A stretch of 32,000 bases of DNA, taken from NCBI GenBank assembly GCA_046350815.1, contig JAXLZO010000001.1, positions 1-32,000 of the forward strand. The letters are read 5' to 3'. This document shows, piece by piece, positions 9,494 to 30,354 of the stretch. The notes under the pieces are model-generated. The model had not been told where the DNA came from. It saw only the letters and a program-made list of their open reading frames with translations, and searched no databases. The DNA comes from Candidatus Saccharimonadota bacterium. GTDB taxonomy: Bacteria > Patescibacteriota > Gracilibacteria > BD1-5 > UBA2023. Both the position numbers and the translations under genes were made by a program. Within the stretch, counting starts at the first letter, position 1. The number at the start of each line of letters is the position of its first letter.

Positions 9494-10465
9494 ATGATTG
9501 AAATGTTTCCTATACCGGGTTTCTGATGAATGCAAGTGGTAGGGAATTTTCTCTCCTTTGAGATTTATGTATTCATTTTTGTATGCGTAAGTCTTTTTTT
9601 ATTTCTCAAAGCACACACCTACAAAGATATCCTCTTCGCAGTCATTGCGGTCGGACTGTATAAATATCTCACGCTTTCACTCTTTGGAAATTCTACCTGT
9701 ATGTGTTCTGGGAACACCTATCCAGACGTAAGCGTGATCAATATTTTTATTGGCATGCTCGATGTAGGAACACTACTAATTGCAAAGTACCTGAGCGAAC
9801 GATGCAAGATGAATAGAAAATATCGTTTTACTTTGCTTCTCCTCCTTACGTACTTTATCTTTCTCGTCAATGAGATGATCATACAATCCATGGGGATCAG
9901 ATCATACACAGAAGATATCTCCAATCTTCTTTCACAGAGTACATTTTTGATGCTCCCAATTGAGAATATACCCTATATTCTGGCGGTTGCATTTTATACA
10001 GTTGGCATATACAGTTTTCTCGAGAAAGTGGACCAAGCAAAGACGAAAAACGTACCACAATCATCTTTCACAAAAACACTCTGAATATCGATTATATCAG
10101 TATTCGCACTCCAAATCATCGTACATCCTATTTTCTTGGATACGTGACTTCCTGAATTTACGTACTTGTATCAAGATATTAACTGGCTTGTGACGATCCT
10201 CTGGTCACTTGCGATCGCAACCATTCTGACACTCATAGGAAAAGGAAGATTTGATATTTACCAAGACTTGATCTGTTCATTTTTTGGTATCCTCATCTTC
10301 AATCTCATACTCTTTATCGTTCTTTTTCAAATCGGTATTTTGCGTATCGCTCCAAGTGTGAACGACTATCTCTGGGGTATCAATTTTTTTGGTCTTCCGA
10401 TCGAAGCAATAACAGGACTTACCATTGCCACACTTATAAAAGTACTTTGCATAAAAAGATTTTAA
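9494..10465 (+). CDS. Polytopic membrane protein, possibly two tandem lycopene-cyclase-type domains
   Basis: Track ORFs 9530..10084 and 10166..10465 are in one frame, extended upstream to ATG 9494 through TGA TGA (9524-9529) and joined through TGA at 10082 and 10145. There are two copies of a hydrophobic ...LPIE... motif (FLMLPIENIPYILAVAF and FFGLPIEAITGLTIATL), resembling the PxEE motif of CrtYc/CrtYd-type cyclase domains. Confidence 0.6.
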
Positions 10466-10478
10466 TATCATTGCTCCT

Positions 10479-11327
10479 ATGAAAAACAATTTCTTGCTCG
10501 GGCTCATATCATGAATCATCATCATCCTTGTGTATAAATTCTGATTATTCGGTCTTCTATCAAGCGAAACATCATTCAAAATGAGTGGGGTCGAACCACG
10601 ATATGTGAGCCATTTTCGCTATACTCCTATCTACAAATGAGAAGAACAAGGCACACTATCAACAGGATGAGAGCTCTACAAAGAAAAAATCAAGGCAATG
10701 CTTCCAAAAATTGAATCTCTCTTGGGTAGATCCATGAATAATGAATCAATCCACCTCTCTATAGCAGATCTTGGCAATTTTCCTATTCTCATCAAGGTAT
10801 TGGAAGGTAAAATTACCATTATAGAAACATCCGAAAAAGATTTCTCGCCAAGTATTGTCTTTCGTGTACAAAAGGCAGATATTGACGGATTGGCTTTCTT
10901 TCTCCAAGATTGAAAACTCAATGCGGAAGAGCAGCTGAAAGTTGCCGATGTTATACTTCCTGCAATGACTGAGAGAGTCTATCGAACAAAAAAACTCTAC
11001 AAACATGGAAGTCTCTCCGCATTCTGATTCGATGATCTCATGCAAATCGAGATCAAACACCCAGAAGGCATCAATCGTCTCAGCGTTCCATTGAGTCTTC
11101 GTGTAACAATAGCTAATATCGATGGACAATGGATAGTCACACCATGATTTGTGGGTGATCCTGATGTTCGTTTCTCTCTTAGCCTCGAGGATGCACTCAA
11201 GATATATCAGCTCATCACCATAGATCTTGAAAATGCCGAGACGAAACAAACAGGGATCGCGGTAGGGAAAGATATATTTGCGATTCTCTCAGAGAATCAA
11301 ACCTATGTCAGAAAAGACCATGAATAA
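10479..11327 (+). CDS. Hypothetical membrane-anchored protein
   Basis: ATG at 10479. The TM helix is MKNNFLLGLISGIIIILVYKFGLFGLL. The frame was checked through TGA at 10512, 10542, 10638, 10668 and further TGAs to TAA at 11325-11327. The stop overlaps the next gene's start (ATGAATAA). I preferred this to the 167-aa antisense standard-code ORF 10746..11249. Confidence 0.6.
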
Positions 11328-12120
11328 AAAAGTAGTCGTTATAACAGGATCTTCATGATGACTTGGTCATGCTCTCACAGAGGATTTTCTCCAAAAATGA
11401 TACCATGTAATAGCTGGTGTAAGAGATAAAAAAGAGTTAGAGAGAGAACCTCATGAAAACTATGAAAGGATATCACTCGATGTAACCTCTGCAAAAGATC
11501 GATCAGAACTTCTCCGTCGGATCAAGGCAATCGGAAGACTTGATGTACTCATCAATAATGCTGCCATATCCGGATGGTGAGATTTTTGGAAGAGAGATAT
11601 GAATATTGATCAGAGCGTCTATGAGATCAATCTCTTCTGACCGCTTGAGTTGATGAAAATATGTCACGATTTACTCGAATCGGGTAAATGATCCGTGATT
11701 AATATAAGCTCTATCGCTGGGGTCATTCCAACACCATTTCTCGCTTCATATGGAGCATCGAAGATCGCACTCGAATCACAGACCATCGCTCTCTACCTGG
11801 AGAATCCACACACCAAGATTCGCTATCTCAACCTCAGGCTCTGACCGCTCACAGAGGGTCTCTGTGCAAATAAGATCAACCCATGAGATCATCGCTACAA
11901 AGAATGAGTGAAAACACATATGGAAAAAATCAAACACTTTCATGGATACCCAGTGGGAAAAGTGGCAGAATCCATATTTTCATTTCTTGATTCCGAAAAC
12001 AAATTCTCAACCAAAACACTCGGAACATGGGCAAAGATCATTGTATTTCTTGCAAAGTTTCTCCCACAACCGTGGTACCAGATACGCATCGGAAAATGGT
12101 ACAAAAAAATTTCTTTCTAA
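11320..12120 (+). CDS. Short-chain dehydrogenase/reductase (classical SDR)
   Basis: MNKKVVVITGSS-G-G-LGHAL carries the TGxxxGxG motif, with TGA TGA at 11356-11361. Also present are LINNAAISGWGDF, NLF-G-PLEL, G-SVINISSIAG and the catalytic YGASK. It is in the same frame as track ORF 11908..12120. Stop is TAA. Confidence 0.9.
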
Positions 12121-12123
12121 TCT

Positions 12124-12879
12124 ATGATCGAACTTATTATTATCGGAGCTATTATAGCGATTGCTACGCAACAAAACAAGGGCAATAATGTTGTACAAAG
12201 AAACCAGAGTAATAATATTGTGCAAACCGCAAAACCAATGGGGATTATCTGGAGAACTATTCTCTTTGTGATCATCACGCCAATTCTCATGGGTGCGGTT
12301 TGATTAACTCTTTGTATTGGATTCTTCATAGTGGGCGTATCTGGTGCTGAAGATTTAGCTATGACTCTTTCATGGATTATTATACCACTAGCATTGTGCT
12401 GGATTCTCTATAAAAGCGTTCGAACGACGTTCGCAACAGAAATCGGAAGCGGAACGAAGCAATCATGAATGGAACAATGAGATCAGACAACCTCACCAGA
12501 GAAAAAAAGTATGAACATACTTGAAGATATTCTTCCGGTGACTCCTCAAAATAATATGTCTCCCGAAACTCTTGATCTTATGCAAAGTTTAGAGTCAATG
12601 GATATAGGAAATATCGAATCGGTTGTTTTTCTCGGAGCAAATGGAACCATCTTCTCATCGGAGACAGAGAATATAAAGCGTCTTGTCGTGTATATTACCG
12701 ATAAACTCAAAAAGATCGTGTTTGCCCCAGAAGAATTACGAAAGATCTACCATCATGTTTACAGCTATATTGTCTCCAATCTTCCTCCAACAGAATTTGA
12801 AACACTCTCAAAGAAAATCGAACAATTTGTTCAAGAAGGTGGGGAAGTAAAAATAGTGACACGTAACACATTACTCTAA
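12124..12879 (+). CDS. Hypothetical protein with N-terminal TM helices and a soluble C-terminal domain
   Basis: ATG 12124 is in frame with track ORF 12511..12879. The two parts are joined through TGA at 12301, 12466 and 12478, with no TAA or TAG between them. An internal start at 12511 cannot be excluded. Confidence 0.55.
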
Positions 12880-12883
12880 ACCT

Positions 12884-13039
12884 ATGATCATCATTCTCTT
12901 CATTATTTTCCTGCTTCTTGTCTTCACAGAAAAGTCCAGTACAAGTGGTAAAATCATCCGCGGTATACTCAAATTTATAGGAATCATCATTCTTATGGGA
13001 TTCGCATTCTGTACTCTTGTTCTCCTTGGTTCATTCTAA
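12884..13039 (+). CDS. Small two-TM hydrophobic peptide (51 aa)
   Basis: MIIILFIIFLLLVFTEKSSTSGKIIRGILKFIGIIILMGFAFCTLVLLGSF, ending in TAA at 13037-13039. It fills the gap between neighbouring genes. Confidence 0.35.
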   Translation: MIIILFIIFLLLVFTEKSSTSGKIIRGILKFIGIIILMGFAFCTLVLLGSF

Positions 13040-13062
13040 AACTTCTCTTTTATTAATTCATC

Positions 13063-14178
13063 ATGAATCTCTACAAACTTCCCTGGAGTCAACAAGATAA
13101 CCCGAATGGCTGGATCGAGCCAACTACGTATTGTCAGCTCAAATGTCCTGGCTGCTATCGTGGTCTCGACACGTGAGAAGTTATATTCCAGCATATTCCT
13201 CTCGATGAGATGAAACAACAGGTGGATGATTTTATCACCAAACGGAACGTCCAAACCATTTCGATTGCCTGAGGTGAGCCCCTCATGTATCCGCAGATAT
13301 TCGATTTAGTAGAATATATATCCTCCAAGAAGATTTTCACAAAAATTTATACGAACGGTATATCTCTCAATGAAAAAACTCTTAAGAGAATGAAAGAGGT
13401 GGGGCTCACAGAATTTGTTGTCCACATCGATATGTTTCAGGATCGCCAAGGGTGGATGGGACAAAATGAAACGGAGCTCAATGTACTCAGGCAATCTTTT
13501 GTCGATATGTTTCGCAAGAATCCATGAATCAATCTTGGTTTTATTATGCCGATCGGTGTGAACAATCTGATATATCTCGATGATATTATGCGATTCTATC
13601 GCACAAATATTGATATAATCAATCTCATTGTATTCACGGTATTTCGTGATGTTCACGTGGATAATCTTGCTACTATCGATGCAAAGAAGCTCGCAGAAGA
13701 AATCGCCAAGAGAGTGGATTATAACCCGAGTAGCTATCTTCCAAAGGTTCGAAAACAAGAGGAATATGCCTGGCTTCTTTCAGTGTGATTTGGCAATCCT
13801 TCCCGCTATTTTGGAGATGTGAATGCACATCAATACCAGAGATTTATGGAAGCATACTACAAAAAATGGTGAAAATTCTTCATCACCAAGCGACATATTC
13901 TCATGCGTGGAGTCAATCTCTGCAAACTCTTCGCGGGTATTATCTTCTCCAAGAGCGGTATGAAGATCATCAAAAACTATCTTCTGTCAAAAGAAAAAGC
14001 ATTCTACTACCAGAGTATTCTCATCATCGATCCTCCATCAAAATTTGGTGATTGGTGCGAAGCATGTCCTGATATGATGTACGTAAATGGAAAAATGTTT
14101 CCATCATGTATGGTCAACAAATACAAACCGTTTAAAGATCGATTTCTCAAAAAGAAAAAAGATGTTCCTCATTCGTAG
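13063..14178 (+). CDS. Radical SAM enzyme with a Cys-containing C-terminal extension
   Basis: EPTTYCQLKCPGCYR is the CxxxCxxC cluster. ISIA-G-GEPLMYP is the GGEP motif, with its first Gly as TGA at 13270-13272. The C-terminus reads FGDWCEACPDMMYVNGKMFPSCMV. Track ORFs 13285.., 13546.. and 13903..14178 are in the same frame. Stop is TAG at 14176-14178. Confidence 0.88.
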
Positions 14179-14764
14179 ATCACATATTCATAGTGCCAAT
14201 CTTCTCACATTTCTCGCGATACTCTATGGTCTCTGGGGAAGTATGAACATCACTTATGGAAATATTCATACTGGGATCGCTCTCATGATCGTAGGAGTTT
14301 GGTGTGATATGCTTGATGGATATATTGCGCGCAAATACAAACTGCAATCGCAATTGTGATCCATTCTCGATAGCTTTGCTGATATATTCCTCTATATTCT
14401 TCCAATTATTCTCATACAATGACGACTCTCTTGATATGATCTGATTTCTTGATTCATATTGAGTCTATTTACTCTCGCGTGATGTTTTCGACTCGCCTAT
14501 TTCACAGAATCAGGACTTATTACTAAATGAGGAAAGCTTCATTACCCAGGATTTCCCGTCTATTTGAGTCATATATTCTTCATCCTGCTCCTCATAGGAT
14601 CACCTTCATGATTGAGTCTCTCCTATATCGCCATTTTTTCACTGCTTATGGTGTGTGATTGTAATGTTCCAAAAATAAGCATTTTTCTCGGTATTGTTCT
14701 CCTTGTGATACTTATGGCAACCAATATTCTTTCTTCATTATGAGTATTCTCATCTGGATTCTAA
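14162..14764 (+). CDS. CDP-alcohol phosphatidyltransferase (PssA / archaetidylserine-synthase-sized, 200 aa)
   Basis: CDMLDGYIARKYKLQSQL-G-SILDSFADIF is an exact DGx2ARx8Gx3Dx3D motif, with the central Gly encoded by TGA at 14357-14359. The protein is multi-TM. Stop is TAA at 14762-14764. It overlaps the upstream gene by 17 nt. Confidence 0.88.
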
Positions 14765-15333
14765 TATACAACACTCTCTACATCTTCTGTGAATGTGGAT
14801 ATAGGTTTTTTGAGATGAAAGAATTATGGAGAAAGATTGCTCATATCGGAACAGGTCTCATAACATTTGCTTCAACACATTTTCTCATTCTCTCCGATTA
14901 TATTGTTCTCTTTGGATTCTTTTTCCTTTCTTTTCTTATCATTCGCAAATACCATCTCTTCAGAGTATTTGACGAAAAATGACGATGATTTGGTGATCTC
15001 TATTTTATCATTGGACAGCTTATTGCTATCCTTTTTCTGGAATACAATCGAACCATCACCGAGATATGACTTCTCATACTTACACTCTCTGATGGACTGG
15101 CACCATTTGGAAAATATATTTGGAGTGGGGAAATTATCTTTGGTAAGACCTACGGTTGAAGCCTCTTATTCAGTCTGATAACCCTCTTGATTCTCTCGTA
15201 TTATTTTTGATTTTCATTCACGATTATTCCCATTCTTACACTCGCAATTCTCGCAGAACTCCTGTGATACAAAGGTACAGACAATATTACGATTCCGGCT
15301 GTCGTCTGTATGAGTCTTTTCTTGATATGATAA
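14740..15333 (+). CDS. Polyprenol/phytol/dolichol-kinase-like membrane protein (CTP-transferase-1 superfamily, COG0170-like)
   Basis: Motifs are WRKIAHIGTG, LSDGLAPFGKYIWSGEIIFGKTYGGSLLF (compare gD..A..vG...G..k...KT.EGs) and a C-terminal TDNITIP. About six TM helices. Stop is TAA at 15331-15333. It overlaps both neighbouring genes. Confidence 0.65.
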
Positions 15334-16184
15334 ACTACTTTCTCACTCGCTTCCCGATTCTCCTCATAACATGTACTTCTCTTTCACAGATTCTAGGAAC
15401 ATTTTTTGCACTTCGAATACCTATTAATACCAATATTGTTTGTGTTTTTTTGATATTTTCATTGCTTTTTCTCTTCTTTATTCGAGTCATTGATGACTAC
15501 AAAGATCGTGAACATGATAGCAAACACTACCCCGAGAGAGCGATACAAAGCGGACAGATAAACCTCAAGATCCTTCTAAAAATTGCATTGGTTGGAATAA
15601 TATTCGGACTTTGACTTCTTTGGTATTTTTTCTGACTACTTCCATTCATTTTTGCATCGCTCTGAGTCGCGAATAATCTCCTCGGGATTCTATGATTTTG
15701 ATACGGTCGAGATTATAAATTCAAACATATCTTTTTTTATAGTATTCTCAATGGTCTGAGCCTTGCCTTCATTCAGCTCGCACTCTACAGTGTATCTGAG
15801 ATTCAATCATACGCATATTCATATGCTGGAATACTTTTTTTTCTGATGGTCTATTGTAACAATCATCTCTTCGAGATAGCTCGCAAGATACGATCCAGAC
15901 GAGATGTAAGGCACGGTGATAGTTACATGGAACTTCTTGGAGAACAAACAAATCTTTATCTCCTTACCTCAACCATATTCATCATTACGTTGATCAATGT
16001 TCTCATAAGCGGAGAGATTGGTACCAGCTATCAACTCACGATTCTCTACTGTTTGAGTGCTAGCTTTTTCATCATTCTCCTCTGATGGTTTCAGAAATTA
16101 CAGACCCGAAAACTGAAATACTCTGTTCTCTCTGCCACTATTCTCTTCTATATGATGAGTAATCTCCTCCATTTTTCCCTCTAA
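15327..16184 (+). CDS. UbiA-superfamily aromatic/polyprenyl prenyltransferase
   Basis: The first Asp-rich motif and following loop read IRVIDDYKDREHDSKHYPERAIQSGQI (compare NDxxDxxxD...RPlxxG). About eight TM helices. Six in-frame TGA codons were checked (15612, 15633, 15663, 15693, 15699, 16083). Stop is TAA at 16182-16184. Confidence 0.78.
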
Positions 16185-16189
16185 ATCCC

Positions 16190-18133
16190 ATGAAATATCA
16201 ACGCCTTCATATACTTCAAGAGAAAAATATTCTCACTCCACAATCGTTTCTCTACAATGGAGATTTGGATACATTAGGTTGATGGAAAACAACCTCTGTG
16301 ATCGTACGATCTTCTTATCGCTTCGAAGATGAAAATGATCGATCGTATGCCGGATTTTTCCAATCCATAGGACCAATTGATATACACGATACCAAATCCA
16401 TCACGAAAGCTATTGAGACGATCCGAGAAGATGCAAAATTCAAACTCACATCCATAGGACAATCATATGAAGATTTTGATGTTTTTGTTCAGGAGTATCA
16501 AGAAATAGATGGCGGCGGGGTAATATTCCTCCAAGACGAAAAAATGTTACTCCACTATTCCCACGGATGAAATGGTACGAAAAATATTGTAAATGGAACA
16601 CGACCAGATGCAACTATCTATACACAGCAATCATTTGAATTAGTCAGCGATGAAAACAAATACCTAAAAAGATATAGGAAACATATTCAAAAGACTCTGA
16701 AAAAAATCCAACGAATATTCACGGGAAATTTGGATATTGAATTTGGAATATCTAAATGAAATATCTTCATCTTCCAGGTTCGGCCACTCACAGCACACCC
16801 ATTCACCAATCATGGTATCCTCGATTCCAGTAATATCAGTGAGAATTTTCCGGGAACCGTTTCCAGACTCACTGCAAGCTTTGTAACACATCTCTATAGT
16901 CAGGTCTATCAATCACTCGCACATCATTCTGGGATTTCACTCTCAACGATCGCCCAATGCAATCATATTTTTCAAGATCTTATTGTCTACAAGGATAAGA
17001 AACTCTTTTATAATATCACCAACTGGTACAAGATGCTTTTGCTTTTCCCGGGAGATCACAAAAAATCTTTTGATACGATGATTGGGAGTTCATGAAAGGT
17101 TAACTATGTAATACTCGATGATATGATCGATCTTCTGCCTAGATTTTGTTTTCGAATAAAATACTTTTTTTTAGTTCTCTGGAAGATACCAACTTTTCGA
17201 AGAAATCTGAAGAAACTCGAGAATTACCTTGAAGATTTTTATGCTAAATTCGAGAAAATGAACCTTGAGACGACAACCCTGGGCGAAGTATATTTTTTCT
17301 ACAAACAATTTGAGTCACGACTCAATGCATCGTGGCATCTGACCATTGAAAACGACTTTGTTATTATGAAAATGTGAAAGAATATTGATCTAAGAGCTAT
17401 CAACGGTCTCATAAGTGCCAATCAAATTGAGAGCCTCAGTCGTGTCGCGCATGGAAAAATGACTCTTCAAGAATACAAAAAGATATATGGCGCGCGCCTT
17501 GGTGATGAGCTCAAACTCGAGAATACACAGACAGATAATGATAGTGTACTGATGGACATAATCGCCAAATACCGAGAAAAACCACCGTATGAAAAAGATC
17601 AAAAAACCAGAGAAACTCCTATTTCAGGATTCCTCTCTACATTCATCAAGAATCGTGAACAATTTCGACTCTATCGGGCAAAGAATTTTCACATCACTCG
17701 ATTACTTTTTGTGAGTATGGGGCAAAAATTAAGGGAACTCTGAAGTATTTCAAGAGAAGAAGATATTTTTGATCTCAGTATCCAAGATGTAGGAAGACTC
17801 GTACTTTCGCACCAACCTCTTTTGCAAGAGAATGGAAATAAAATACTCATCGGTAAAGCATTTTCTGGAAGAGCATATGTGATGAAGTCATTCAACAGAG
17901 AGGCTCTTAAATATGATGTGATTGTAGCTGAGAATTTTGATCCTGGCTGGACGAGTCTCCTTGGAAATCTCAAAGGAATTATTATCGAACGTGGCAATCT
18001 TCTTTCACACGTGAGTATTATGTGTCGAGAGCTCAATATTCCACTGCTCATGGGAGCAAAAGAAAGTACACTGCATATACAGACTGGAGATCATATATCC
18101 GTAAATTTTCAAGGAGATGTTGCAAAACTCTAG
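16190..18133 (+). CDS. PEP-utilising enzyme family protein: N-terminal PPDK_N/ATP-grasp domain plus C-terminal swivelling phosphohistidine domain (rifampicin-phosphotransferase-like architecture)
   Basis: Motifs are VIVRSSYRFEDENDRSYAGFFQSI, DIEFGISK-G-NIFIFQVRPLT, NISENFPGTVSRLT and YNITNWYKML. The C-terminal segment DPGWTSLLGNLKGIIIERGNLLSHVSIMCRELNIPLLMG matches the GG..SHaaIvaRE.GiP swivel motif. Track ORFs 16298.., 17123.., 17459.. and 17822.. all share one frame. Stop is TAG at 18131-18133. Confidence 0.85.
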
Positions 18134-19046
18134 TATACACATCAGAAAATATCTCGATCAAATCGAGACAAAGTACAATGCCTTCCGATACCATTCTGAT
18201 CATATCACACTCTCGAGGATAGATGACGTGTGCTTTTCGCACATTGAAAAAGAAATCATCGCAGATGATCGAGGATTTGGAATTCTTTTTTGTGATGATC
18301 GTATCTCATCGGAAGTTGGTTTTATAGGATTTTTCGAACTCTATCAGGTATCAGATAAAATGGACTTCATACAATACCTCATAGAAAAAGCAAAAGAAAA
18401 ATGATACAAACGATTGATCGCACCAGTCAATCTCTCCATCTGGGGGAGTTATCGCTTTTCTCATATATCGAGCAATCCGGCAATATATGGCGAATATCTC
18501 ACGGATCCAGAATATCCGGACATCTTCTTAAAAACTGGCTTTTCCAAATATGAAGGATATACAACAGCATATCGCGAAAGCAATCCATTTATAACCCTGG
18601 ATGAACTGGAGGATAATTTGGAAGTAGATGAAATCCCACAAGAAATACAAGATGAAGTACTCTTTTGACTCTCTTCGAAAATATTCGTATGAGCACCGAA
18701 GATATCAAAGGAAGAATTTGATATATATATGCAAGTATACAAAAAACTCTATACGAAGAATATGCACATATTCTGACTCAGATTCAACGGATCATATATT
18801 GGCTTCGCGAGCACTTTTTATGACGAAAAGAGTTTTATTATAAAAACGATTGGAATACTAGATGTTTATCGTGGAAAATGATATGGAAATCATTTCCTCT
18901 CGCATATTCATTCCTTTTATGAACATCTCAGCATCAAAAAGGCATTCTACCTTTTTATGAGAGAATCCGGGGATGCACTCGACCTCACACACAAAGACGC
19001 CAAATACCATAGAAGTTATTCCACCTATATTTTCCATCTATCCTAA
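18117..19046 (+). CDS. GNAT-family N-acyl/acetyltransferase with an N-terminal extension
   Basis: Track ORFs 18117..18404 and 18414..18668 are in the same frame and continue to TAA at 19044-19046. The acyl-CoA binding motif is DVYRGK-G-YGNHFLSHI (R/QxxGxG), with one Gly as TGA at 18879-18881. Confidence 0.68.
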
Positions 19047-19051
19047 AGAGT

Positions 19052-20131
19052 ATGACGATCACGGACATTCTTGCTATTTTTATCATTCTCGATCTTGCCG
19101 GTATCATTCATATCATTTGTATCAAGAAAGATCTCTTCAAATTTTTGAAAACACCAATATATGAGAAGCTCTTCTGAAAGAATAAAACCTACCGAGGTCT
19201 CATTCTGATGCCACTTCTGTCTGGGATGCTCGGAAGCTCCTATTTTGATTTCTCATTTGCACTGAGCCTTGGTCTTGTATGGATTCTCTGAGAACTTCCG
19301 AATAGTGCTATGAAGCGATTCTTTCATATCAAACCTGGAACATATGCCACAGGTGGATGGATACTCGTACAATATATGGGCGATACGATGGATAGTATTG
19401 TTTTCTTGCTGATCTTTTTAAATATTGTCTTCCCTATTTCTCTCGAAACAAATCTTATACTTCTGATAGCCTGATGTCTCAATCATATCATCATTGATGT
19501 ACTGTGTTATAAAATAGGCATCAAAAAACTCAACTTTGGCAATCCATTAATCATTCTCAATCAAATCATTCTCTGGATATTATTTCGACCATATATATGG
19601 TATTTTGTCACGAAACGATGAACGAACTACACGGTATTTGAGAAGAAAAAATCCAAGATTCTCATATCCAATCACATTAGTCAACTCGATCCATTTCTTA
19701 TCTGTGGCACGCTTCCATTTAACATATTTTTCTCATGCCTCCCATTTCGATTTCTGACATCCAATCAATTTATGGATAAGGTATTTCGATGAAATTTTCT
19801 TCGCATAGTCTGAGGATACAGAGCATATACACTTGATTCACAAGGGAATAATCACAGTTTGCAAATTTCTGAACAATTTCTAAGTCAAAATGAGGCGCTG
19901 ATGATATTTCCGGAATGAGGCATACACTATCGCAAATTCTGAGTGGGTGCCTTTTATCTCAAGGCTCACGTGCCAGAATCCACACTTCTCTGTTTTCATA
20001 TTGCAAAAGATCACCACCACTATAAGATAACCTTCAATGGAAGAGCTGAACTCACCGATCCATCATGAGATCTCATGATCCAAGGCACACAAATATTTCA
20101 AAACTCCTGCTATGAATCTCATGAAAAGTAA
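19052..20131 (+). CDS. Fusion protein: CarS-like (CDP-archaeol synthase / DUF46 family) N-terminal domain plus PlsC/LPLAT acyltransferase C-terminal domain
   Basis: The N-terminal half has LF-G-KNKTYRGLILMPL and LG-ELPNSAMKRFFHIKPG...GDTMDS. These compare with A. fulgidus CarS GDGKTWRG and GDLCGSFIKRRFGYERG...VDQ. The C-terminal half has ISNHISQLDP (HxxxxD) and MIFPE-G-G (FPEG, with TGA at 19916-19918). The whole frame was verified codon by codon. Stop is TAA at 20129-20131. Confidence 0.72.
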
Positions 20132-21179
20132 AATTGAGAAACTGAAGCTGATGTATACTATGATCCGATATAGCGGATCATACTCTCAGAAAATAGTAGA
20201 AACTTTTTTTGATAAATACCTCGGTCATCACAAAATCGTTCGTTGGCGAGATGGATTTCCCATCTATAGCAGCTTTGTCCCACCTATTTGGAGCGATGCG
20301 AGTGCACATCTGATGGGTGCAACGTTCTTTGGTCTCGTTGCAGACAAACAAATACCATTTCAGATGAATGTTGCCGTCACGGATATATGCAATGCTCAGT
20401 GCAGTCATTGCAGTTTTTACAATGGTATCCACGATGAAAATCGAACTATGCTCAGCAAAAACGAATACAAATGATTGATATCTCAGGCTCAATCCATCGG
20501 TATCAGTCATATTGGATTTGTCTGATGAGAGCCGCTTATGAGCGAAGATTTCTTTGAGATTCTCGCAGATGTTGATACCAAAAAATCAATTACCACACTT
20601 TTTACGAATGGATATTTTCTCGAGGAAAATGTCGAACGTCTGAACAAATTATGACTCACGACCATAGCAGTAAGTCTCGATAGCCCAGATCTCCACATGC
20701 ATGAAAAACTTCGAGTACTCCCATGACTCAAAGAACGATTGATACGTGGAATTGAGAAGGCAAGAAAGTATAATTTCAATCTTGTTCTGTCCGTGTGTCT
20801 CTTTGAAGGAAATTATTTTCATTTCTCCAGATATATGGAGCTCGCGCGCAAAATGGGATTTCATGAAGTACTTCTTCTCCCAGCGATCCCAACGTGAAGA
20901 TTGAAAAATAAACCTCTCAAAGTGAGCATCAGCGGTGGAAGAGCGCTCAAAAAAATGGTGGATAAATATAACCAGAACTGTGATTACCCACCCATATACC
21001 ACTACAGTTGGATCAGTTCATCTGCATCACTCTGATGCCAAGGAGGAAAAAAATATATCTATATTTCACCATACGGCGATCTTCTCCATTGTGATTTTGC
21101 TAGCAAATCTTATGGTAATATCAAAGACGACACACTCTCGGATCTACTCTTTGGTAATAAGAAATTATGTGGTTTTTAG
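20112..21179 (+). CDS. Radical SAM enzyme with a SPASM/twitch-like C-terminal Cys region
   Basis: VTDICNAQCSHCSF is the CxxxCxxC cluster. In GFV-G-G-EPLM both GGEP glycines are TGA (20523-20528). The C-terminus reads L-G-CQGGKKYIYISPYGDLLHCDF, matching the C.aG...l.i.pdGdv.pC pattern. Stop is TAG at 21177-21179. Confidence 0.85.
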
Positions 21180-22394: not shown

Positions 22395-22456
22395 AAAATA
22401 CCACGCTAAAAGAAGAGTGGTATTCTAGTGATTTTTATCAAAGATCCAACTGGAAA

Positions 22457-22750
22457 CTACTTACGTGCAAGTTTTTCTTTGAGTTTATCAAAGAGATGAT
22501 TAATAAGATCTGCAAGATGCACATATCGTTCACGATCAAAGTGAAAATGCTGATCAACGATATCCACATTGAGAGTTCATGAGTAGCTACCATCATCAGC
22601 ATGGAGCTCAATTTTTACATCGATACGTACTTCCCTATCGGCAAACGGACGAAGGTAGGAATCAAGTTTGTTCTCAAGATTTTCAGAGACAAGACGTTCT
22701 GTTGCAGGTTTTGCAGAATCTGGAGCGTGAATAATAATTGTTTGTGACAT
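22457..22750 (-). CDS. hpf: Ribosome hibernation-promoting factor / RaiA (short form)
   Basis: Translation is MSQTIIIHAPDSAKPATERLVSENLENKLDSYLRPFADREVRIDVKIELHADDGSYS-G-TLNVDIVDQHFHFDRERYVHLADLINHLFDKLKEKLARK. It shows the S30AE-family pattern and has one TGA. Stop is TAG at 22457-22459. Confidence 0.7.
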
Positions 22751-22779
22751 AGGCAAAAAGTTAAGAACGAACCATGGAT

Positions 22780-23583
22780 TTATCAGTGATTTGGTGGATC
22801 GCTTCCATGGCGTGATTCATGATGAACAGTCGTACTTCATACATCTTCTCGGAGATCAATCGTATCAACACGAAGTTTTGCAGTCTCGACAAAATATTTG
22901 TGACGTGGTTTATCATCCCCGACATGATAACCGATGGAATGATGCTCAATTGGGGTTACCTTCTCTTTTACCACATCCGTGAGTGTTCGCAAAAGAAGTG
23001 AAAATGCCTCTTGATCGCTCATAGCGCCCGCATCTGCAGCATCATTAAGGGTATGGGATGCAAGATCACTATGGTTTCCTCGCATAATAGATCGGATGGC
23101 GAGTGCACCATCATCTGGAAAGATCGCTCACCGGAGTATCGGATCAAGATTCGAATCCGTCGTATGAAGGCGAATATCGCCCCGAAGAAGAATCGGATCA
23201 TAGAAGGTAGATGAAGTGCTTGAGACACTCACGATCGACTGTGGATCGATGTATGACTCATCAAATGATATTCCCGAATATCGCAAGTCTACCATACCAT
23301 TGGTCGTCACGATCCAGACTCGAAAATACCAGAGACAGATATTATAGAGCACCACTATATAAATAGCGATGAGAAGCATATTCATACTCATCGGAGTGAG
23401 GAGCGCATGAATACCAAATGAGTTGTATTTATAGAGAAAAATCGGGAGAAATATACCAAAAAATACCCAAGGTGTTATCGACTCGATCAATTCAAAAGGA
23501 TGAAGCCGAATAATACGCACTATCTGCTCGACAGGAACGATTCGTCCGAACAAGAACGATTCAAAAGCAGAGACGCTATTCAT
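22780..23583 (-). CDS. Hypothetical membrane protein (N-terminal TM hairpin plus a possible bPH-like soluble domain)
   Basis: Track ORFs 23128..23583 and 22837..23085 are in one frame, joined by TGA at 23128 and extended through TGA at 22837 and 22783 to TAA at 22780-22782. Confidence 0.55.
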
Positions 23584-23727
23584 ATATTCTGATTATAGTC
23601 TGAGAGGAAAAATTCTCAATAAAAAAATCTCACTTTGATTGCTGCAATTCTCATGATGATTGAAGTATAAAAATACTCTTTGTAATTAAATTCTTTGTAT
23701 CTCAAGATATACTGAATATTATTCATC

Positions 23728-24048
23728 ATGATCTCATTTCTTCCCCACTTCGATATGAACGAAACATTTATTCTTATTCTCACCTTTCTCTATTCCATAG
23801 GTTGAGTAGTGACTTTTTTTGGATTTATCCCAACTATGTTGGATTTATGGAAAGGAAAACCAAGTGCAAATATATCTACCTATATTGTTTGGACGCTCAC
23901 AACACTTTTCACTTCGCTTTATGGCATTTTTGTGCTGCAAAATTTAATCTTCATAATAGTGATCAATCTCCAATTATTAGCATGTGTTTTTGTTCTCATA
24001 TTGAGACTCAGATTGAATTATCTGAAAAAAAATTCTACATTGAGATAA
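23728..24048 (+). CDS. Three-TM PQ-loop/SemiSWEET-like small membrane protein
   Basis: ATG 23728 is in frame with track ORF 23809..24048 through one TGA. FFGFIPTMLDLWKGKPSANISTYIVW resembles the PQ-loop motif (lPQ....k.ks..g.S), with Thr in place of Gln. Confidence 0.45.
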
Positions 24049-24052
24049 GAGT

Positions 24053-24439
24053 ATGACAAATATCAAACTTCACCAAAAGGCAATCATCTTCAATCACGAA
24101 GGTAAGATTTTAACGCTCAAAGCAAGCTACAAATGACTCAAATGGGACCTACCAGGTGGTGGACTGGAATTCCCAGAGCTTCACGAAGAAGCACTCAGAC
24201 GTGAAATCAGAGAAGAAACAAGTCTCGAAATACAAAATATTGTTCCGCTCGAAATACAGAATGTCTACAACAAAGAAGCCGATGAATATATGATCTTCAT
24301 CGGTTATAAATGCTGAGTTCTATCCGGATCAATCAAGCTTAGTTCAGAGCACTCCGAATATAGATGGGTAACCAAGGATCAATTTCTCACTCTGGATGCA
24401 ATACCATATCTCAAAGATTATGTAGCAAAGTTTTGCTAG
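24053..24439 (+). CDS. NUDIX hydrolase
   Basis: The Nudix box is PGGGLEFPELHEEALRREIREETSL (GX5EX7REUXEEXGU). Two in-frame TGA codons. Stop is TAG at 24437-24439. Confidence 0.85.
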
Positions 24440-24488
24440 TCTTAAATCCATTATTATTATCAAAGTAAAAATTAACATTACGTTTTAT

Positions 24489-24764
24489 ATGACCGATAAA
24501 GAAGATCCAATCGTTCCCCTGTTTATTCCGAGTCTTGTTGCAAAATTAAAAGCAGCTGAAGATAAAAAGGGTTCCTCTCTGACAGAAGAAGAAGTTATCA
24601 ATATGAGAGATATTTCAATTGCCGTAACAGTGCCATTGACAATTCGCAATGAAATTTGGGAATCTCGTGGTTATAATGATATCAGTGTAGAAAACTGTTG
24701 GCAAGATTGGTGTGAAATAAGAAAAGAACTACTCAACTATGATACAACAAAAATGGCACTTTAA
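24489..24764 (+). CDS. Hypothetical protein (91 aa)
   Basis: The ORF is intact in any code and is followed directly by a strong hairpin. No family recognised. Confidence 0.5.
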   Translation: MTDKEDPIVPLFIPSLVAKLKAAEDKKGSSLTEEEVINMRDISIAVTVPLTIRNEIWESRGYNDISVENCWQDWCEIRKELLNYDTTKMAL

Positions 24765-24774
24765 GTGCCATTTT
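24748..24774. terminator. Hairpin terminator overlapping the stop codon, shared by convergent genes
   Basis: The stem is AAAAATGGCACT / AGTGCCATTTTT (loop TTA), flanked by an A run and a T run, so it could work in both directions. Confidence 0.6.
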
Positions 24775-24804
24775 TATAACAAGATATTTTGATTCACAAC
24801 AATC

Positions 24805-26853
24805 TTACTCATCCTTCTTCAGCGATACATTCATACGAAAGATCGTATCATCACTCACATAGCGACCCTTTACCGCTGAGAGACAACGAGTGACATTTGC
24901 ATGCCAATTCTTACTCGATGAGGCATAGATTGGTCAGGTAAGATTGCCATAGCGAGAGAGCTCTGATACCTTGGTATAATTCCCGAGATATCGGTTATTG
25001 AGCGTCTTTGCCATCATTCGTACTCACGTCTGTGGAGAACTAAATGTTCGAACATCCCCACTATCGGTATTACCGATATTACCAACATTGTATCCCGTCT
25101 TGAGATGACGACCCAGTCCTGTCTCAGCAAGACCAACACACATCATAAATGCAGGGTCAATACCACCAGCAAGTGACTCATCCGTCCACATATCCCAATT
25201 CTGGAAGGCTGGTGTTGCATACGTGTTGAGAAGGTATTTCTGACGATCAACTTCTGTTGCACCACTGAGCATAAACGTGCTTGGCGAATCCATCTTCGGC
25301 GCTGATCCAAACCGAGCAAAATAATCAGCGGCATATTTATCAAGATATCGCTCAGTGAGTCATTTTGGTTCAAGATTCGAGATATTCATATATTGGAGCG
25401 GATCGACTGCTTCACCATCTTTGAACACCTCAAAATGAAGATGGGGACCAGAAGTCATAGAGCCAGCACCAACTGTACCACGTGCCCCACCACTCTGTGC
25501 GATAATTTGTCCGCGCTGAACTACATCAAATTTTGATACATTCACGCTCGAGATATGACCATATACGGTCATAAATCCATTCGGATGTTTGATCGCAACA
25601 TATCCATATCATGTCTTCGTTGGAGGGTTGATATAGTAGACATATCCATCCGCTGGAGATAAAATATCAGTTGACTGAGCCACAGGGATATCGATCGCAT
25701 CATGATGCGATCCGAGCGCTTCGTAATACTCACTGTCGTGAAAATAACTTGAAATTCTTGAACTTGCAACGGGCCAAGAAAGAGGGTTACTCGAGTCATC
25801 AGCCATTGCAGAAGTCATGATTTTCTTCTCTGCCTCAAAATACGATGCGAGCGTTACACATTCAATACTACTTTGAGCATCGAGCACAATCGATGCTTTT
25901 TCATTCACACTACATCATTTTACTGCAGCAATTTCCTCAAATGTCTTCTGATAAACATTACTGACTTCTGAGAGATGCGCAGAGAGTTTTTCACTCGATT
26001 CACTTCGTTCAATGATGAGAGTATTAAGTTGTGATTCATCATCTTTTGCCTGTGTAAGAAGAGCTTCTTTATAGTCTTTTTGATCATCGAGAGTGATCTG
26101 ATAATTCTCGAGGTCTTTCTTTGCCACCTCGAGGTCTTCTTTTTGCTTTTGGAGACTGAGGTTCTCCTGATAGAGTGCTGCGACCGCACTACGATAATTA
26201 TCGATAAATTCTTTACCAGCGAGCTCGAGCAATGCTTGAGAATAAATGTCATCGAGCACACGAGCAACATCATTGGAATTCATCACAATCGTCTTGAGAA
26301 GATCAACATCCTGATTTTTTACATCAAACACAACATCTCATTTCGTATAAATAACTTCAAGATATTGAAGGAGGATCGCCTTACTTGCAGCTATTTTTTC
26401 CTGAAGTGCACTCACTCGATTTTGAGTCGATCTTATATTTGCCTCGATACCGACACTGTCACGTTCACGTTTTTCGATCTCAGTCTGAGTTAAGCTCATA
26501 TCTTGTTCGATCTGAGCAATAGCATCCTTAAGACTCATTTTCTTTTCAACAACATTTCTCTTCATTTCCTTATACTGATCTTTTGTTTCATTGACACGAT
26601 TGAGCATTTGTGCAAGTGTATTTGCTTTGCGCTCCGCAAGAAAGAGTTTCTGTTCAACTCATTGAGGGAAAGGGGATGTCTCAAAAAGGAGTACTTTTTC
26701 TCATTCTTTAAAACGATCAAGAATAACCGCAGATCTTGATTTCTCTATACTGACAAAATTCTCAGCAAAAAGAGATACTGGAAAAATATGAGCTAGAGAT
26801 GTAGCAATCAAAGTATATGAGAGAATATTGAGAAGAAGAAGGCGATTTTGCAT
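24805..26853 (-). CDS. Secreted multidomain cell-wall hydrolase: signal peptide, long coiled coil (EnvC-like), M23 peptidase and a C-terminal glucosaminidase-like domain
   Basis: Six track ORFs (26701.., 26338.., 25915.., 25609.., 25360.., 25024..) all lie in one minus frame, separated only by TGA. The signal peptide is MQNRLLLLNILSYTLIATSLAHI. M23 motifs are HDAIDIPV, G-YGYVAIKHPNGFMTVYGHIS and GPHLHFEVFKDGEAVDP. The C-terminal domain reads VGLAETGLGRHLKTGYNVGNIGN...PIYASSSKNWHANV. Stop is TAA at 24805-24807. Confidence 0.85.
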
Positions 26854-26909
26854 GTCTGAGAAAGTGTATATACTCCAGCCTATCATATACACCCCACATC
26901 TGACAAATT

Positions 26910-27435: not shown

Positions 27436-28156
27436 TAGGGTCTAGACTAGCAAATTTTTAAAAATAGCTTTTTTTGCGAGTCTGAAATTTTTATAATTGT
27501 ATCGAAATTCGCACCCTTTCAAACGAAGATGAAATTTATCTGGGGCAATCCCATTAAACTTTGCCATTCTTCTTTTGCAGAAACTCCAGAAAGATTCAAT
27601 ACCATTCACATGATTCTTTCCTCTGGCAAACTCATTCTCACTGTGAAATACCCTATAGTGATCATATCCATTTAAAACAAGAGAATCATATGCTTTCCAT
27701 CCATCCGTATAGATGGTAGATCATTCCAGTATTTTCCCATGAATAATTGGCATAAGTTCACTTCTGGAGCAGTTCTCTACAATACTTACAAATACTCTTC
27801 CATCTCGCTTGAGAAGTCCAAACACTGGTGTTTTTCCTGCAGCTCACCTTCCTCTTTTTCATCTAACCCGACGAGCACCAAAGTAACTTTCATCCAGTTC
27901 AAATTCTCATCAGAATTCATACCTTTCTTTGAAACTCTTTGATTCCTCAATGGAAATTCGCACAATAGCCTCTCGAAATCGGTTATACCAAAGATTCACA
28001 CTATTACGATTTATCCCCATAATTTTTGCTGTCTGAGTAGCAGTAAAATCCTCAAAAAAATAGTAAAAAATTCTTCAAATTTTATAAGTCGATAATTTTG
28101 TGTATTTGATCATAAGCAAATAGTGTAAGAAGTACTATTTGCTAGTCAAGACCCTA
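27436..28156 (-). mobile_element. IS1595-family insertion sequence (about 721 bp) with 20-bp imperfect terminal inverted repeats
   Basis: IRL is TAGGGTCTAGACTAGCAAAT (27436-27455). The reverse complement of IRR (28137-28156) is TAGGGTCTTGACTAGCAAAT, a 19/20 match. The repeats enclose a single transposase gene. I could not identify a target-site duplication. Confidence 0.8.
27442..28113 (-). CDS. IS1595-family (ISXO2-like DDE) transposase, intact under code 25
   Basis: The protein (223 aa) contains F-G-G-EFELDESYFGARRVR-G-KRGR-G-AAGKTPVFGLLKRDGRVFV...STIYTDGWKAYDSLVLNGYDHYRVFHSENEFARGKNHVNGIESFWSFCKRRMAKFNGI. I scanned every codon. There are six in-frame TGA codons (28075, 27910, 27907, 27859, 27844, 27721) and no TAA or TAG until 27442-27444. 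Confidence 0.85.
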
Positions 28157-28526: not shown

Positions 28527-29564
28527 CTATCTCCAAAATCTCATCCACCTTACGATCCACAACAAATAATATTTCCAAGAAAGTATTATCATGCATCCCT
28601 GGGGAAATCTCACCACCTCCCCACCAAATCGAGATTTGAAGAAGCTAACACCTGCAAGATGATGTTTTTTCTGGTTTTCTGGAGCGATCCCGAGAAAATC
28701 ATAGATTTTCCGACCTGTCTCCATCGCATATCAAATCATCGCTCACTGTATAACAAAACTGGCCATCAATTTCTTCGCCTCACTCTCCCCAGCTGATGCA
28801 CCGTAATAATAATACGCCATATCTCAACAAGCAATATAGAGAGCACTCGCCAAAGGATCAGTGTATGATGGATGCTTTGCCTCAAAAAGACGTACCTCTA
28901 GAGCATCTGACTGCAAAGATGCTAGTGCTTCAAACATCGAACGTGAATTAATCGAGAACCCATCTCGCTTTGCTGTGTCTGCAAGGAGTCAGTAAAATCA
29001 ATTAATATTTTCCATTGAGAATAAGCGATTGGATACAGTGACTCAACGTTTTTCACCAAGACGTAGATTATATCGACCTTTTTCATGCATGTTTGCAAGG
29101 ATCGTCTCATATGAGTCATCAAGACGAATAATTCGTGTATATGGTTCGATAAATTTCTTCCAAAATCACTTTTTCACGTTTTCTTGCTTGAGTAGTATAT
29201 CTTCAACGTCTCATTCAAGTGGTTCAAATGAAAGAAAAACTAATCTATGCTTGAGAGACCAAGATTGCAACTCTTTCATATGTTCTGCAAAAAACTCATC
29301 ATCATTTCACATCACGATCGGACCGCCAATCACAAATCATCCATATTGCCCAAGTCCTATTCTGCGAATCTGTAGAGCACTCCATATTCGACATCCTGAT
29401 CATTCTGAAAAAAGAATGATACTCTCACTCGTTGCATCACCCGCATTGATCACCATTTGTTGCCATTCTTTCGTTTGCCAGAGAGAAATATTATCCAAAT
29501 GGATTGACAGGAGAGCTAAAGAAGTTTTGTTATAAAATTGATGTTTATACTTTTTTATGCTCAT
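28527..29564 (-). CDS. FemAB-family aminoacyl-tRNA-dependent peptidoglycan peptide-bridge transferase
   Basis: The frame runs from ATG 29564 through about 12 TGA codons to TAG at 28527-28529. Motifs are WQTKEWQQMVINAG, KGRYNLRLGEKR-G-V, YYYYGASAGE, FVIQ-G-AMI-G-YAMETGRKIYDFLGIAPE and GVSFFKSRFGGEVVRF (compare Gv..FK..fGG). Confidence 0.78.
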
Positions 29565-29597
29565 AAATTTGCAAAGAATGAAAAGATAGTATAGCAT

Positions 29598-29981: not shown

Positions 29982-29996
29982 AATCATATCTTGATT

Positions 29997-30032
29997 AAAA
30001 AATCCTTCAGAAATATTTCTGAAGGATTTTTT
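29997..30032 (+). terminator. Strong rho-independent terminator
   Basis: A perfect 18-nt palindrome arm pair, AAAAAATCCTTCAGAAAT / ATTTCTGAAGGATTTTTT, follows the STAS stop directly. Confidence 0.7.
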
Positions 30033-30051
30033 CATCTGATGACTCCAATAT

Positions 30052-30340: not shown

Positions 30341-30354
30341 ACCGCAAAGAATCC

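Follow-up and report, generated by a model that had tools for sequence, protein, structure and literature searches.

The locus considered here raises the question of whether one reading frame, gene g17 at positions 19052 to 20131 of the forward strand, specifies a single protein in which a domain resembling CDP-archaeol synthase (CarS) is joined to an acyltransferase of the PlsC type and, if so, what such a protein would do in a bacterium. The frame lies in the first 32,000 nucleotides (hereafter the window) of contig JAXLZO010000001.1 of the assembly GCA_046350815.1, which is from a Candidatus Saccharimonadota bacterium placed by GTDB within the Gracilibacteria. An initial annotation, made from the sequence alone, had described g17 as such a fusion, had suggested that it was new, and had interpreted it as a chimera of archaeal and bacterial lipid chemistry. 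The results presented below indicate that the fusion is real and is intact in code 25 only, that its N-terminal half appears from its relatives to be a member of a large bacterial branch of the CarS family, and that the protein, in the reading which we favour with moderate confidence, is an integral-membrane enzyme with two activities, working in a dedicated pathway for polar lipids of a code-25 bacterium (Gracilibacteria/Absconditabacteria group) of the candidate phyla radiation (CPR).

Genetic code and integrity of the fused frame

When the region 19052-20131(+) is read with table 11, the frame is interrupted by nine in-frame TGA codons (codons 42, 80, 141, 190, 247, 254, 289, 297 and 339) and only fragments are obtained, but this standard-code reading is ruled out by the recoding of TGA throughout the window, where the number of stop-to-stop open reading frames (ORFs) of at least 150 aa is 73 with tables 4/25 versus 11 with table 11. 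Under code 25 the frame extends from the ATG at 19052 to the TAA at 20129-20131 and is free of TAA or TAG interruption. The choice of code 25 (TGA as Gly; SR1/Gracilibacteria) rather than code 4 is made because the TGA codons align to conserved Gly residues of homologues: codon 42 in 36 of 36 rows, codon 141 in 32 of 39, codon 254 in all 11 and codon 289 in 10 of 11, where the rows are homologues that were not translated with code 4 and are mostly from standard-code organisms. Thus four of the nine TGAs of this gene coincide with conserved Gly positions, which also rules out code 4 (TGA as Trp), and based on these alignments TGA is read as Gly in the fusion gene. A tRNA scan of the window found 0 tRNA genes, so no support from a tRNA-Gly(UCA) is available from the window, and an Rfam scan of it gave no RNA matches. 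The initial annotation was silent on the dependence of this ORF on code 25, the Gly residues in question being the nine TGAs. The dependence extends to the other genes of the operon described below, as each of them has 3-9 in-frame TGAs and hence a standard-code annotation would shatter the operon.

The single-polypeptide claim of the initial annotation is borne out. Independent assemblies contain full-length orthologues (357-362 aa, 41-88% identity) in which the two domains are arranged alike, and when 1.84 billion representatives, clustered at 50% identity, were searched for proteins of the same architecture, about 24 clusters covering both domains were retrieved. A second clade of fusions (P0006, P0017, P0018 and P0020-22; 387-424 aa) uses the standard code and has precomputed matches to both PF01553 and PF01864. 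The supposition that the fusion arises from a frameshift or join near 19550-19650, or represents two genes separated by a true TGA stop, would be in accord with the nine TGAs that break the frame under the standard code. However, recoding is global in the window with TGAs at conserved Gly positions, no TAA or TAG occurs within the frame, orthologues of equal length and identical architecture are found in more than 20 independent assemblies, including those of standard-code organisms with unambiguous gene calls, and the junction between the domains is ungapped and conserved (K158, P165, Q171). Because the orthologues share their architecture across independent assemblies, the fusion is no assembly artefact; this explanation is effectively refuted and we assign it a negligible probability. 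One contig considered as a standard-code fusion, L004 (CAZXON010000004.1, labelled Candidatus Peribacteria), was rejected as such, since its ORFs are whole only when TGA is read as sense and it is therefore recoded despite its label. The only name given to any fusion is '1-acyl-sn-glycerol-3-phosphate acyltransferase', by JGI to one member; the NCBI copies are nameless.

The two domains and their relatives

The N-terminal domain has five predicted transmembrane (TM) helices and two K/R-rich loops, which bear the conserved motifs. Its membership of PF01864 holds by transitive homology of sequences and not by the protein's own score. Six of the seven full-length fusion homologues match PF01864 (best 1.1e-12), and a profile of the fusion recovers hundreds of PF01864 proteins with E-values of 1e-26 to 1e-32. 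A profile of the N-domain family gave a single match in the PDB, viz. CarS of Aeropyrum pernix (5GUF; E=4.4e-7, residues 13-172 of 182), in which the three motifs (GxxKTxxG, SFxKRRLGIxxG and DQxD) align with those of 5GUF at G42-G49, S85-G96 and D111-D114; the profile of the full-length fusion found nothing at E<=1 among PDB sequences. Within the N-domain family, 16 residues are invariant in 38 members. They include G42, K45, T46, R48 and G49 in the first motif, E81-S85, K88 and R89 in the second, D111, D114 and S115 in the third, and also H145.

The structural evidence comes from an AlphaFold model of P0001, which is 88% identical to the window protein and was modelled with Trp at the nine TGA sites, where the local geometry is unreliable. 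The model (pLDDT 88.9, pTM 0.83) has five TM helices (3-25, 47-61, 67-90, 103-126 and 131-155), a sixth hydrophobic helix at 165-185 and an alpha/beta domain. In a Foldseek comparison the N-half matched 5GUF over 157 columns with a target-normalised TM-score of 0.58 and a probability of 0.90, and the E-value of this match is only 0.62 because the two-domain model was used as query. The N-domain thus resembles A. pernix CarS (PF01864, EC 2.7.7.67) in its five-TM fold, its near full-length profile alignment and its GxxKTxxG, SFxKRRxGxxxG and DxxD motifs in two cytoplasmic loops, and the same chemistry may be presumed, viz. conversion of cytidine triphosphate (CTP) and a lipid phosphate into a cytidine diphosphate (CDP)-lipid and pyrophosphate. 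It differs in having about 16% identity, a bacterial host, an acyltransferase partner and no GGGPS or G1P dehydrogenase gene nearby in the window. The analogous step in bacterial phospholipid synthesis is carried out by the CDP-diacylglycerol synthase CdsA, a member of the same CTP-transferase superfamily (PMC9385802). Some stand-alone relatives of the N-domain show weak matches to the CdsA family (PF01148; Thermotoga maritima 4Q2E); however, the fusion protein matches PF01864 and not PF01148, it is much shorter, and its N-domain, like CarS, is without the N-terminal dimerisation domain of CdsA (PMC7018664).

The C-terminal domain consists of the hydrophobic helix 165-185 followed by the alpha/beta domain. 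Here the fusion protein by itself matches PF01553 (Acyltransferase) at 28.3 bits (cutoff 23) over residues 194-292, and six of the seven fusion homologues also match it, the best at 6e-15. N207, H208, D213, F286, P287 and E288 are invariant among the fusions, as is R233, a candidate motif II residue. The Foldseek matches of the C-half are to PatA (5OCE/5F2T, E=1.4e-4 to 8e-4), to the glycerol-phosphate acyltransferase GPAT (1K30), and to PlsC of T. maritima (5KYM, PF01553; target-normalised TM-score 0.53-0.54). With PlsC the domain shares the HX4D and FPEG motifs, the alpha/beta fold and a hydrophobic helix ahead of the catalytic domain; it differs in its identity of 11-12%, in having FPEGG as motif III, and in that the anchor of the fusion is an entire five-TM enzyme. 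The PlsC subfamily to which it belongs is small and distinct and also includes stand-alone forms of 190-217 aa. All the motifs quoted by the initial annotation (G42-KNKTYRG49, G80-ELPNSAMKRFFHIKPG96, G110-DTMDS115, N207-HISQLD213 and F286-PEGG290) are found in place, and homologues conserve the catalytic motifs of the N-half as well as those of the C-half.

Fusions of other kinds provide some parallels. ElbD of Myxococcus xanthus combines AMP-binding, reductase and AGPAT domains for the synthesis of ether lipids, and OlsF of Serratia and Flavobacteria combines O- and N-acyltransferases. Compared by description only, these are a precedent for g17, since each unites a lysophospholipid acyltransferase (LPLAT) domain with the enzyme for an adjoining reaction of a non-canonical lipid pathway, and they differ in that neither is known to have a cytidylyltransferase domain; the AMP-binding and reductase domains seen in ElbD also occur fused to the bacterial CarS-like branch.

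The bacterial CarS-like branch and the proposed pathway

The branch of PF01864 to which the N-domain belongs is large and bacterial, with hundreds of stand-alone proteins, mostly of 170-200 aa, in Bacteriovoracia, Flavobacteriales (Kordia), Streptococcus sanguinis, S. cristatus, Clostridia, Planctomycetota, Myxococcales and several CPR phyla. On this sequence evidence the N-domain is to be regarded not as an archaeal import but as a member of a bacterial branch, and the initial annotation's assignment of it to archaeal-pathway chemistry, and hence its 'archaeal plus bacterial chimera', is overstated.

The gene context of this branch was examined in 80 loci (L002-L081) from GTDB representative genomes, each centred on a CarS-like gene, by means of local hidden Markov models applied within 10 kb; the counts are from contigs of unequal length and from phylogenetically related genomes. 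A CDP-alcohol phosphatidyltransferase (CDP-OH_P_transf) is present in 49 of these loci, a kinase resembling rifampin phosphotransferase (RPH-like) also in 49, a UbiA-family protein in 37, a GNAT-like protein in 30, a radical SAM enzyme in 13-14 and a protein resembling g13 of the window in 10, and all five core families (CarS-like, CDP-alcohol transferase, RPH-like, UbiA and GNAT-like) occur together in 17. Among the CPR loci, L013 (Moranbacteria), L023 (Paceibacterota), L049 (Komeilibacteria), L035 and L076 have a cluster of the window type in which the CarS-like gene stands alone and PlsC is missing. One of them, L035, is labelled as a Pacearchaeota archaeon although it carries the CPR-type module, which could be due to a binning error or to horizontal transfer. 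Fusion to the acyltransferase is seen in the Gracilibacteria group and in one standard-code lineage (L082, L085), whose fusions adjoin UbiA, RPH-like, CDP-OH_P_transf and GNAT genes. The g13-like gene of these two loci is that for a membrane protein of 216-217 aa adjoining the fusion. A 195-aa protein encoded between UbiA and RPH was considered as the g13 homologue and was ruled out, as it is a ferritin/COQ7-like di-iron protein. The di-iron genes (L082 12343-12930(-) and L085 6746-7330(-)) lie between the UbiA and RPH-like genes, whereas the operon of the Gracilibacteria carries genes for radical SAM enzymes in place of them; the two could be an aerobic and an anaerobic solution for the same lipid modification. 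Further, the g13-like gene and a second RPH-like copy are distributed in a complementary manner, with 10 loci having g13 and one RPH, 13 having two RPH without g13 and 0 having both, a pattern that may mean that g13 stands in for the kinase otherwise adjacent to CarS, although the statistics are weak (one-sided p of about 0.03, a hand estimate that ignores phylogeny).

CarS-like domains of this branch are also found in other fusions, viz. with a Pss-like CDP-OH_P_transf domain (P0008, P0067, P0078 and P0144), with AMP-binding and CDP-OH_P_transf domains (P0172), and with a fatty-acyl-reductase domain (P0142), and therefore the branch is linked with CDP-dependent head-group transfer and fatty-acyl chemistry. 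The CDP-OH_P_transf fusions, of which no description was found in the literature searched, resemble g17 in that the same branch is joined to an enzyme of an adjacent step within the same UbiA/RPH-like module; they differ in that their CarS-like domain comes at the C-terminus and is joined to the head-group transferase, which acts after it, rather than to an acyltransferase acting before it. The module of S. sanguinis also has a bona fide phosphatidylserine decarboxylase (145 bits) beside the CDP-alcohol transferase, from which the CarS-like product may be taken to be a CDP-lipid used by a serine transferase. This cluster (S. sanguinis 2908, L054 10007-19017) contains CarS-like, RPH-like, Pss-like, phosphatidylserine decarboxylase, UbiA, a second RPH-like and GNAT-like genes; similar clusters occur in cultivable Firmicutes (L064, L072, L077 and L046), with the decarboxylase confirmed in S. 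sanguinis only. A cluster of the S. sanguinis type, on which the literature searched yielded no paper, predicts an as yet unknown phosphoserine or phosphoethanolamine lipid. At another locus (L083 2354-12781) a 919-aa fusion of HMG-CoA reductase and a kinase is encoded together with UbiA, an RPH-like protein, a CDP-OH_P_transf plus CarS-like fusion, an AMP-binding enzyme and an MMPL transporter, a gene content by which the module is connected with the supply of isoprenoids and the export of lipids.

Based on these observations, the g17 protein would act as follows. Its LPLAT domain (His208/Asp213) would acylate the free hydroxyl of a monoradyl glycerol-phosphate, which may be lyso-phosphatidate or a 1-O-prenyl-glycerol-phosphate made with the UbiA of the operon. 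The CarS-like domain (K45/T46, K88/R89 and D111/D114) would then move cytidine monophosphate (CMP) from CTP onto the diradyl-glycerol-phosphate to form a CDP-lipid, in which the PssA-like g12 would replace CMP by a head group that is probably serine. In this way the fusion would pass a membrane-bound intermediate directly from one step to the next, although the succession of the steps, the substrates and the acyl donor are all inferred. The positive-inside rule, applied to the K/R-rich loops 26-46, 88-102, 156-164 and 186-201, suggests that both active sites are cytoplasmic and, if this is so, the helix 165-185 may lie at the membrane interface as an anchor, in the manner of the helices at the N-terminus of PlsC. 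That one of the two chains is prenyl, giving a mixed ether/ester lipid, is a tentative proposal which we think more probably wrong than right. The full form of it, in which an isoprenoid ether chain is added by UbiA and an ester acyl chain by the PlsC domain of the fusion, the dolichol-kinase-like and RPH-like kinases salvage the prenyl donor (prenol to diphosphate), the CarS-like domain CDP-activates the lipid and the Pss-like enzyme adds a serine-type head, is likewise possible but doubtful. The mixed prenyl/acyl lipid or recycling of lysolipids suggested in the initial annotation is in any case viable, because a CDP-alcohol phosphatidyltransferase and UbiA are in the same operon.

Several results weigh against this interpretation of a bifunctional enzyme acting in consecutive steps. 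The fusion protein alone scores 19.1 bits against PF01864 (E=0.0014, residues 67-161), where the gathering cutoff is 22, and 20.7 bits against the CarS equivalog model NF003114 (EC 2.7.7.67), where the cutoff is 148. The CarS match of the initial annotation is therefore borderline for the single sequence, although clear at the family level by the homologue and 5GUF matches given above. With respect to the acyltransferase, the score for PlsC proper (TIGR00530) is 31.7 bits against a cutoff of 102.95 (41-43 bits for the standard-code fusions), the third motif is FPEGG and not the usual FPEGT/R, and the best structural match is PatA. The domain is hence better described as a member of the LPLAT superfamily than as PlsC proper, and LPLAT enzymes such as PatA and OlsA also acylate acceptors other than glycerol-phosphates. 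The bacterial CarS-like branch has no member with a known substrate. Its proteins are mostly stand-alone and are paired with an RPH-like kinase (49/80) and not with an acyltransferase, the PlsC subfamily of the fusion being near CarS-like genes in only 4 of the 80 loci, and so the substrate of the CarS-like step may usually come from a phosphorylation rather than an acylation. Lastly, enzymes that depend on acyl carrier protein were absent from the CPR genomes examined in one study, which bears on the acyl donor (PMC7242380).

Part of this evidence is also what supports the main rival, in which both domains are active but on different lipids, the CarS-like domain CDP-activating a polyprenyl phosphate or another lipid phosphate supplied by g13 and the RPH-like kinases, and the LPLAT domain O-acylating a head group or an aminolipid made with GNAT, as in the OlsB/OlsA pair. 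It accords with the pairing of CarS-like genes with RPH-like kinases and seldom with this PlsC subfamily, with the likeness of the C-domain to the sugar-acylating LPLAT PatA, with the dolichol and phytol kinase names that JGI gives to g13 homologues, and with the GNAT-like gene, a core member of the module, directly upstream of the fusion. However, the nearest solved relative of the N-domain, 5GUF, uses a diradyl-glycerol-phosphate, the Pss-like fusions and the phosphatidylserine decarboxylase of S. sanguinis suit a chemistry of the glycerophospholipid type, and gene fusions mostly join consecutive steps. We therefore hold this explanation to be fairly unlikely.

The occurrence in one operon of UbiA together with a CarS-like domain and a CDP-alcohol transferase resembling archaetidylserine synthase could be read as the sign of a genuine archaeal pathway that has been acquired horizontally, with the N-domain as a true CDP-archaeol synthase acting on digeranylgeranylglyceryl phosphate (DGGGP) made by UbiA (as DGGGPS) and archaeol lipids as the product. 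The core similarity of the radical SAM proteins to Tes and HpnH and the Pacearchaeota label of L035 could be cited in its favour. However, GGGPS/PcrB and G1P dehydrogenase, i.e. genes of an archaeal context, were not found among the window proteins scanned; the CarS equivalog cutoff is missed by a wide margin not only by the fusion protein but also by its bacterial relatives, which align over their full length at 43-76 bits; and the UbiA of the operon (g14) scores 22 bits against DGGGPS models with cutoffs of 296-353. Moreover, the branch spans many bacterial phyla, as expected of an old bacterial family, the fused partner is an ester-forming acyltransferase, and acylglycerol lipids are what has been reported from the CPR cells analysed so far (PMC7242380). 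An archaeal pathway is thus very improbable. Slightly more improbable still is that the N-half is a catalytically dead CarS relic, serving merely to anchor an ordinary lysophospholipid acyltransferase. PlsC enzymes do require a membrane anchor (5KYM), and the sub-threshold PF01864 match, limited to residues 67-161, would be consistent with such decay. However, in fusions that share only 27% identity the polar residues of both halves remain invariant, including in the N-half all the conserved ones of the three motifs and H145, and this points to purifying selection on an active site and not just on hydrophobic helices. The bifunctional enzyme therefore remains our preferred interpretation.

With regard to novelty, no paper dealing with the fusion, with CarS-like proteins of bacteria or with the module was found in a full-text literature search, and reviews of CarS/CdsA and of CDP-diacylglycerol synthases make no mention of such fusions; most subscription journals lie outside the coverage of the search, so that novelty is not proven, but the statement of the initial annotation that the fusion is undescribed stands for the searchable literature. 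Both enzyme families represented in the protein are known; what is undescribed is the way in which they are combined and the pathway setting. The closest studied lineage, the Absconditabacteria, has been described as 'devoid of phospholipid synthesis' (PMC8080830), and CPR bacteria are reported to recycle lipids, to depend on host lipids and to be lysolipid-rich (PMC7242380). The operon, as judged from its sequence, would encode at least the late steps (acylation, CDP-activation and head-group transfer) in a lineage held to lack this synthesis, where they have been masked by the alternative code and by sequence divergence, and metabolic reconstructions would need to be revisited. The fusion also serves as a Rosetta-stone link, which provides a working hypothesis for a branch of the 'archaeal' CarS family that is bacterial, large and unstudied, and points to the conserved five-gene module. 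As this module is present in the cultivable and genetically tractable S. sanguinis, the existence of natural bacterial CDP-activated prenyl/ether glycerolipids is testable, and this bears on the debate on the lipid divide. If the hybrid lipid were to prove true, the CarS-like branch would mark a widespread and overlooked ether/prenyl-phospholipid pathway, extending from S. sanguinis to Bacteriovoracia and CPR and straddling that divide.

The operon of the fusion gene and its surroundings

The fusion gene is the eleventh of 12 genes, all on the + strand and tightly packed or overlapping, which form a lipid operon at 9494-21179 (Table 1). In four other recoded genomes (L001-L004) the order radical SAM, CDP-OH_P_transf, g13, UbiA, RPH-like, GNAT-like, fusion and radical SAM is retained with 31-50% protein identity, and g07 is syntenic in L001, L003, L013, L023 and L035.

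Table 1. Coordinates of the fusion gene, its domains and motifs, and the other genes of the lipid operon in the window.
Feature	Position	Strand	Evidence or remark
g17, fusion gene	19052..20131	+	359 codons + TAA, code 25, 9 TGA=Gly codons
g17 CarS-like (PF01864) cytidylyltransferase domain, residues 1-165	19052..19546	+	Pfam, PDB profile match, AlphaFold model, Foldseek
g17 motif G42-KNKTYRG49	19175..19198	+	counterpart of GDGKTIEG in A. pernix CarS
g17 motif G80-ELPNSAMKRFFHIKPG96	19289..19339	+	counterpart of CarS SFxKRRLGIxxG loop
g17 acidic motif G110-DTMDS115	19379..19396	+	aligned with CarS DQLD
g17 LPLAT/PlsC-type acyltransferase domain, residues 166-359	19547..20128	+	PF01553 match, Foldseek matches
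g17 acyltransferase motif I N207-HISQLD213 (HX4D catalytic dyad)	19670..19690	+	N207, H208, S210, L212 and D213 invariant in fusions
g17 acyltransferase motif III F286-PEGG290	19907..19921	+	F286, P287 and E288 invariant; TGA 289 = Gly in 10/11 homologues
g07, polytopic membrane protein, 323 aa	9494..10465	+	weak lycopene-cyclase-like PF18916, E=0.0046, below cutoff
g08, 282 aa	10479..11327	+	faint SCP2-like match; syntenic in L001, L003, L004, L049
g09, short-chain dehydrogenase/reductase	11305..12120	+	PF00106 115.5 bits; syntenic in L001, L003
g10, 251 aa	12124..12879	+	no family match
g11, radical SAM enzyme	13063..14178	+	PF04055 70.5 bits; core-level similarity only to HpnH, Tes, NirJ
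g12, CDP-alcohol phosphatidyltransferase, closest to PssA/archaetidylserine synthase	14087..14764	+	PF01066 56.6 bits
g13, membrane protein, 197 aa, dolichol/phytol-kinase-like (tentative)	14740..15333	+	JGI homologue names
g14, UbiA-family prenyltransferase	15327..16184	+	PF01040 47.6 bits; no equivalog-level assignment
g15, RPH-like ATP-grasp + swivelling-His phosphotransferase, without phosphoenolpyruvate/pyruvate TIM barrel	16190..18133	+	PF01326, PF00391
g16, GNAT-like acyltransferase, 309 aa, directly upstream of fusion	18117..19046	+	PF00583 25.4 bits
g18, radical SAM/SPASM enzyme	20037..21179	+	PF04055 77.1 bits + SPASM match

For some of these genes the assignments and starts call for comment. 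Against the pssA model TIGR00473, g12 scores 58.1 bits (cutoff 107), and its true start is probably the ATG at 14162. The true start of g18 is probably the ATG at 20112, which gives an overlap of 20 nt with the fusion gene, and the alignments of g18 homologues start at residues 29-46. The best PDB matches of g15 are to the rifampin phosphotransferase of Listeria (5FBS, 5HV1); its orthologues carry PF27448 (Rph_4th) and it is of the UbiA-adjacent RPH type. The placement of g13 among the kinases of the CTP-transferase superfamily is tentative and follows from the JGI names of its homologues ('dolichol kinase' or 'phytol kinase') alone. Only one of 11 homologues matches PF01148, and weakly (E=0.0015), whereas for the window protein there was no Pfam match, the comparison with the CarS-like profile by hhalign gave a probability of 5%, a PDB profile search found nothing, and Foldseek with a model of pLDDT 86 found no match.

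In L001 (GCA_017973835.1) a gene for a patatin-like phospholipase (12171-12971) directly follows the operon, which would suit a role in making lysolipids for the acyltransferase domain to acylate. At the equivalent position the window has no patatin, and RseP follows on the opposite strand. The region 22400-24800 of the window has few convincing genes, among which, as judged by eye from their translations, are a probable ribosome-hibernation-factor-like ORF (22457-22909, - strand) and a Nudix hydrolase-like ORF (23981-24439, + strand). Downstream of the operon region there is an IS1595/ISXO2-like DDE transposase (27442-28113, - strand; PF12762 105.6 bits). The same strand also carries a 693-aa protein (24805-26886), by eye an M23 peptidase with a coiled coil, and a FemAB-family peptidoglycan-branch transferase (28527-30467), whose long upstream ORF extension looks spurious; these FemAB and M23-like genes are cell-wall genes typical of episymbiotic CPR bacteria.

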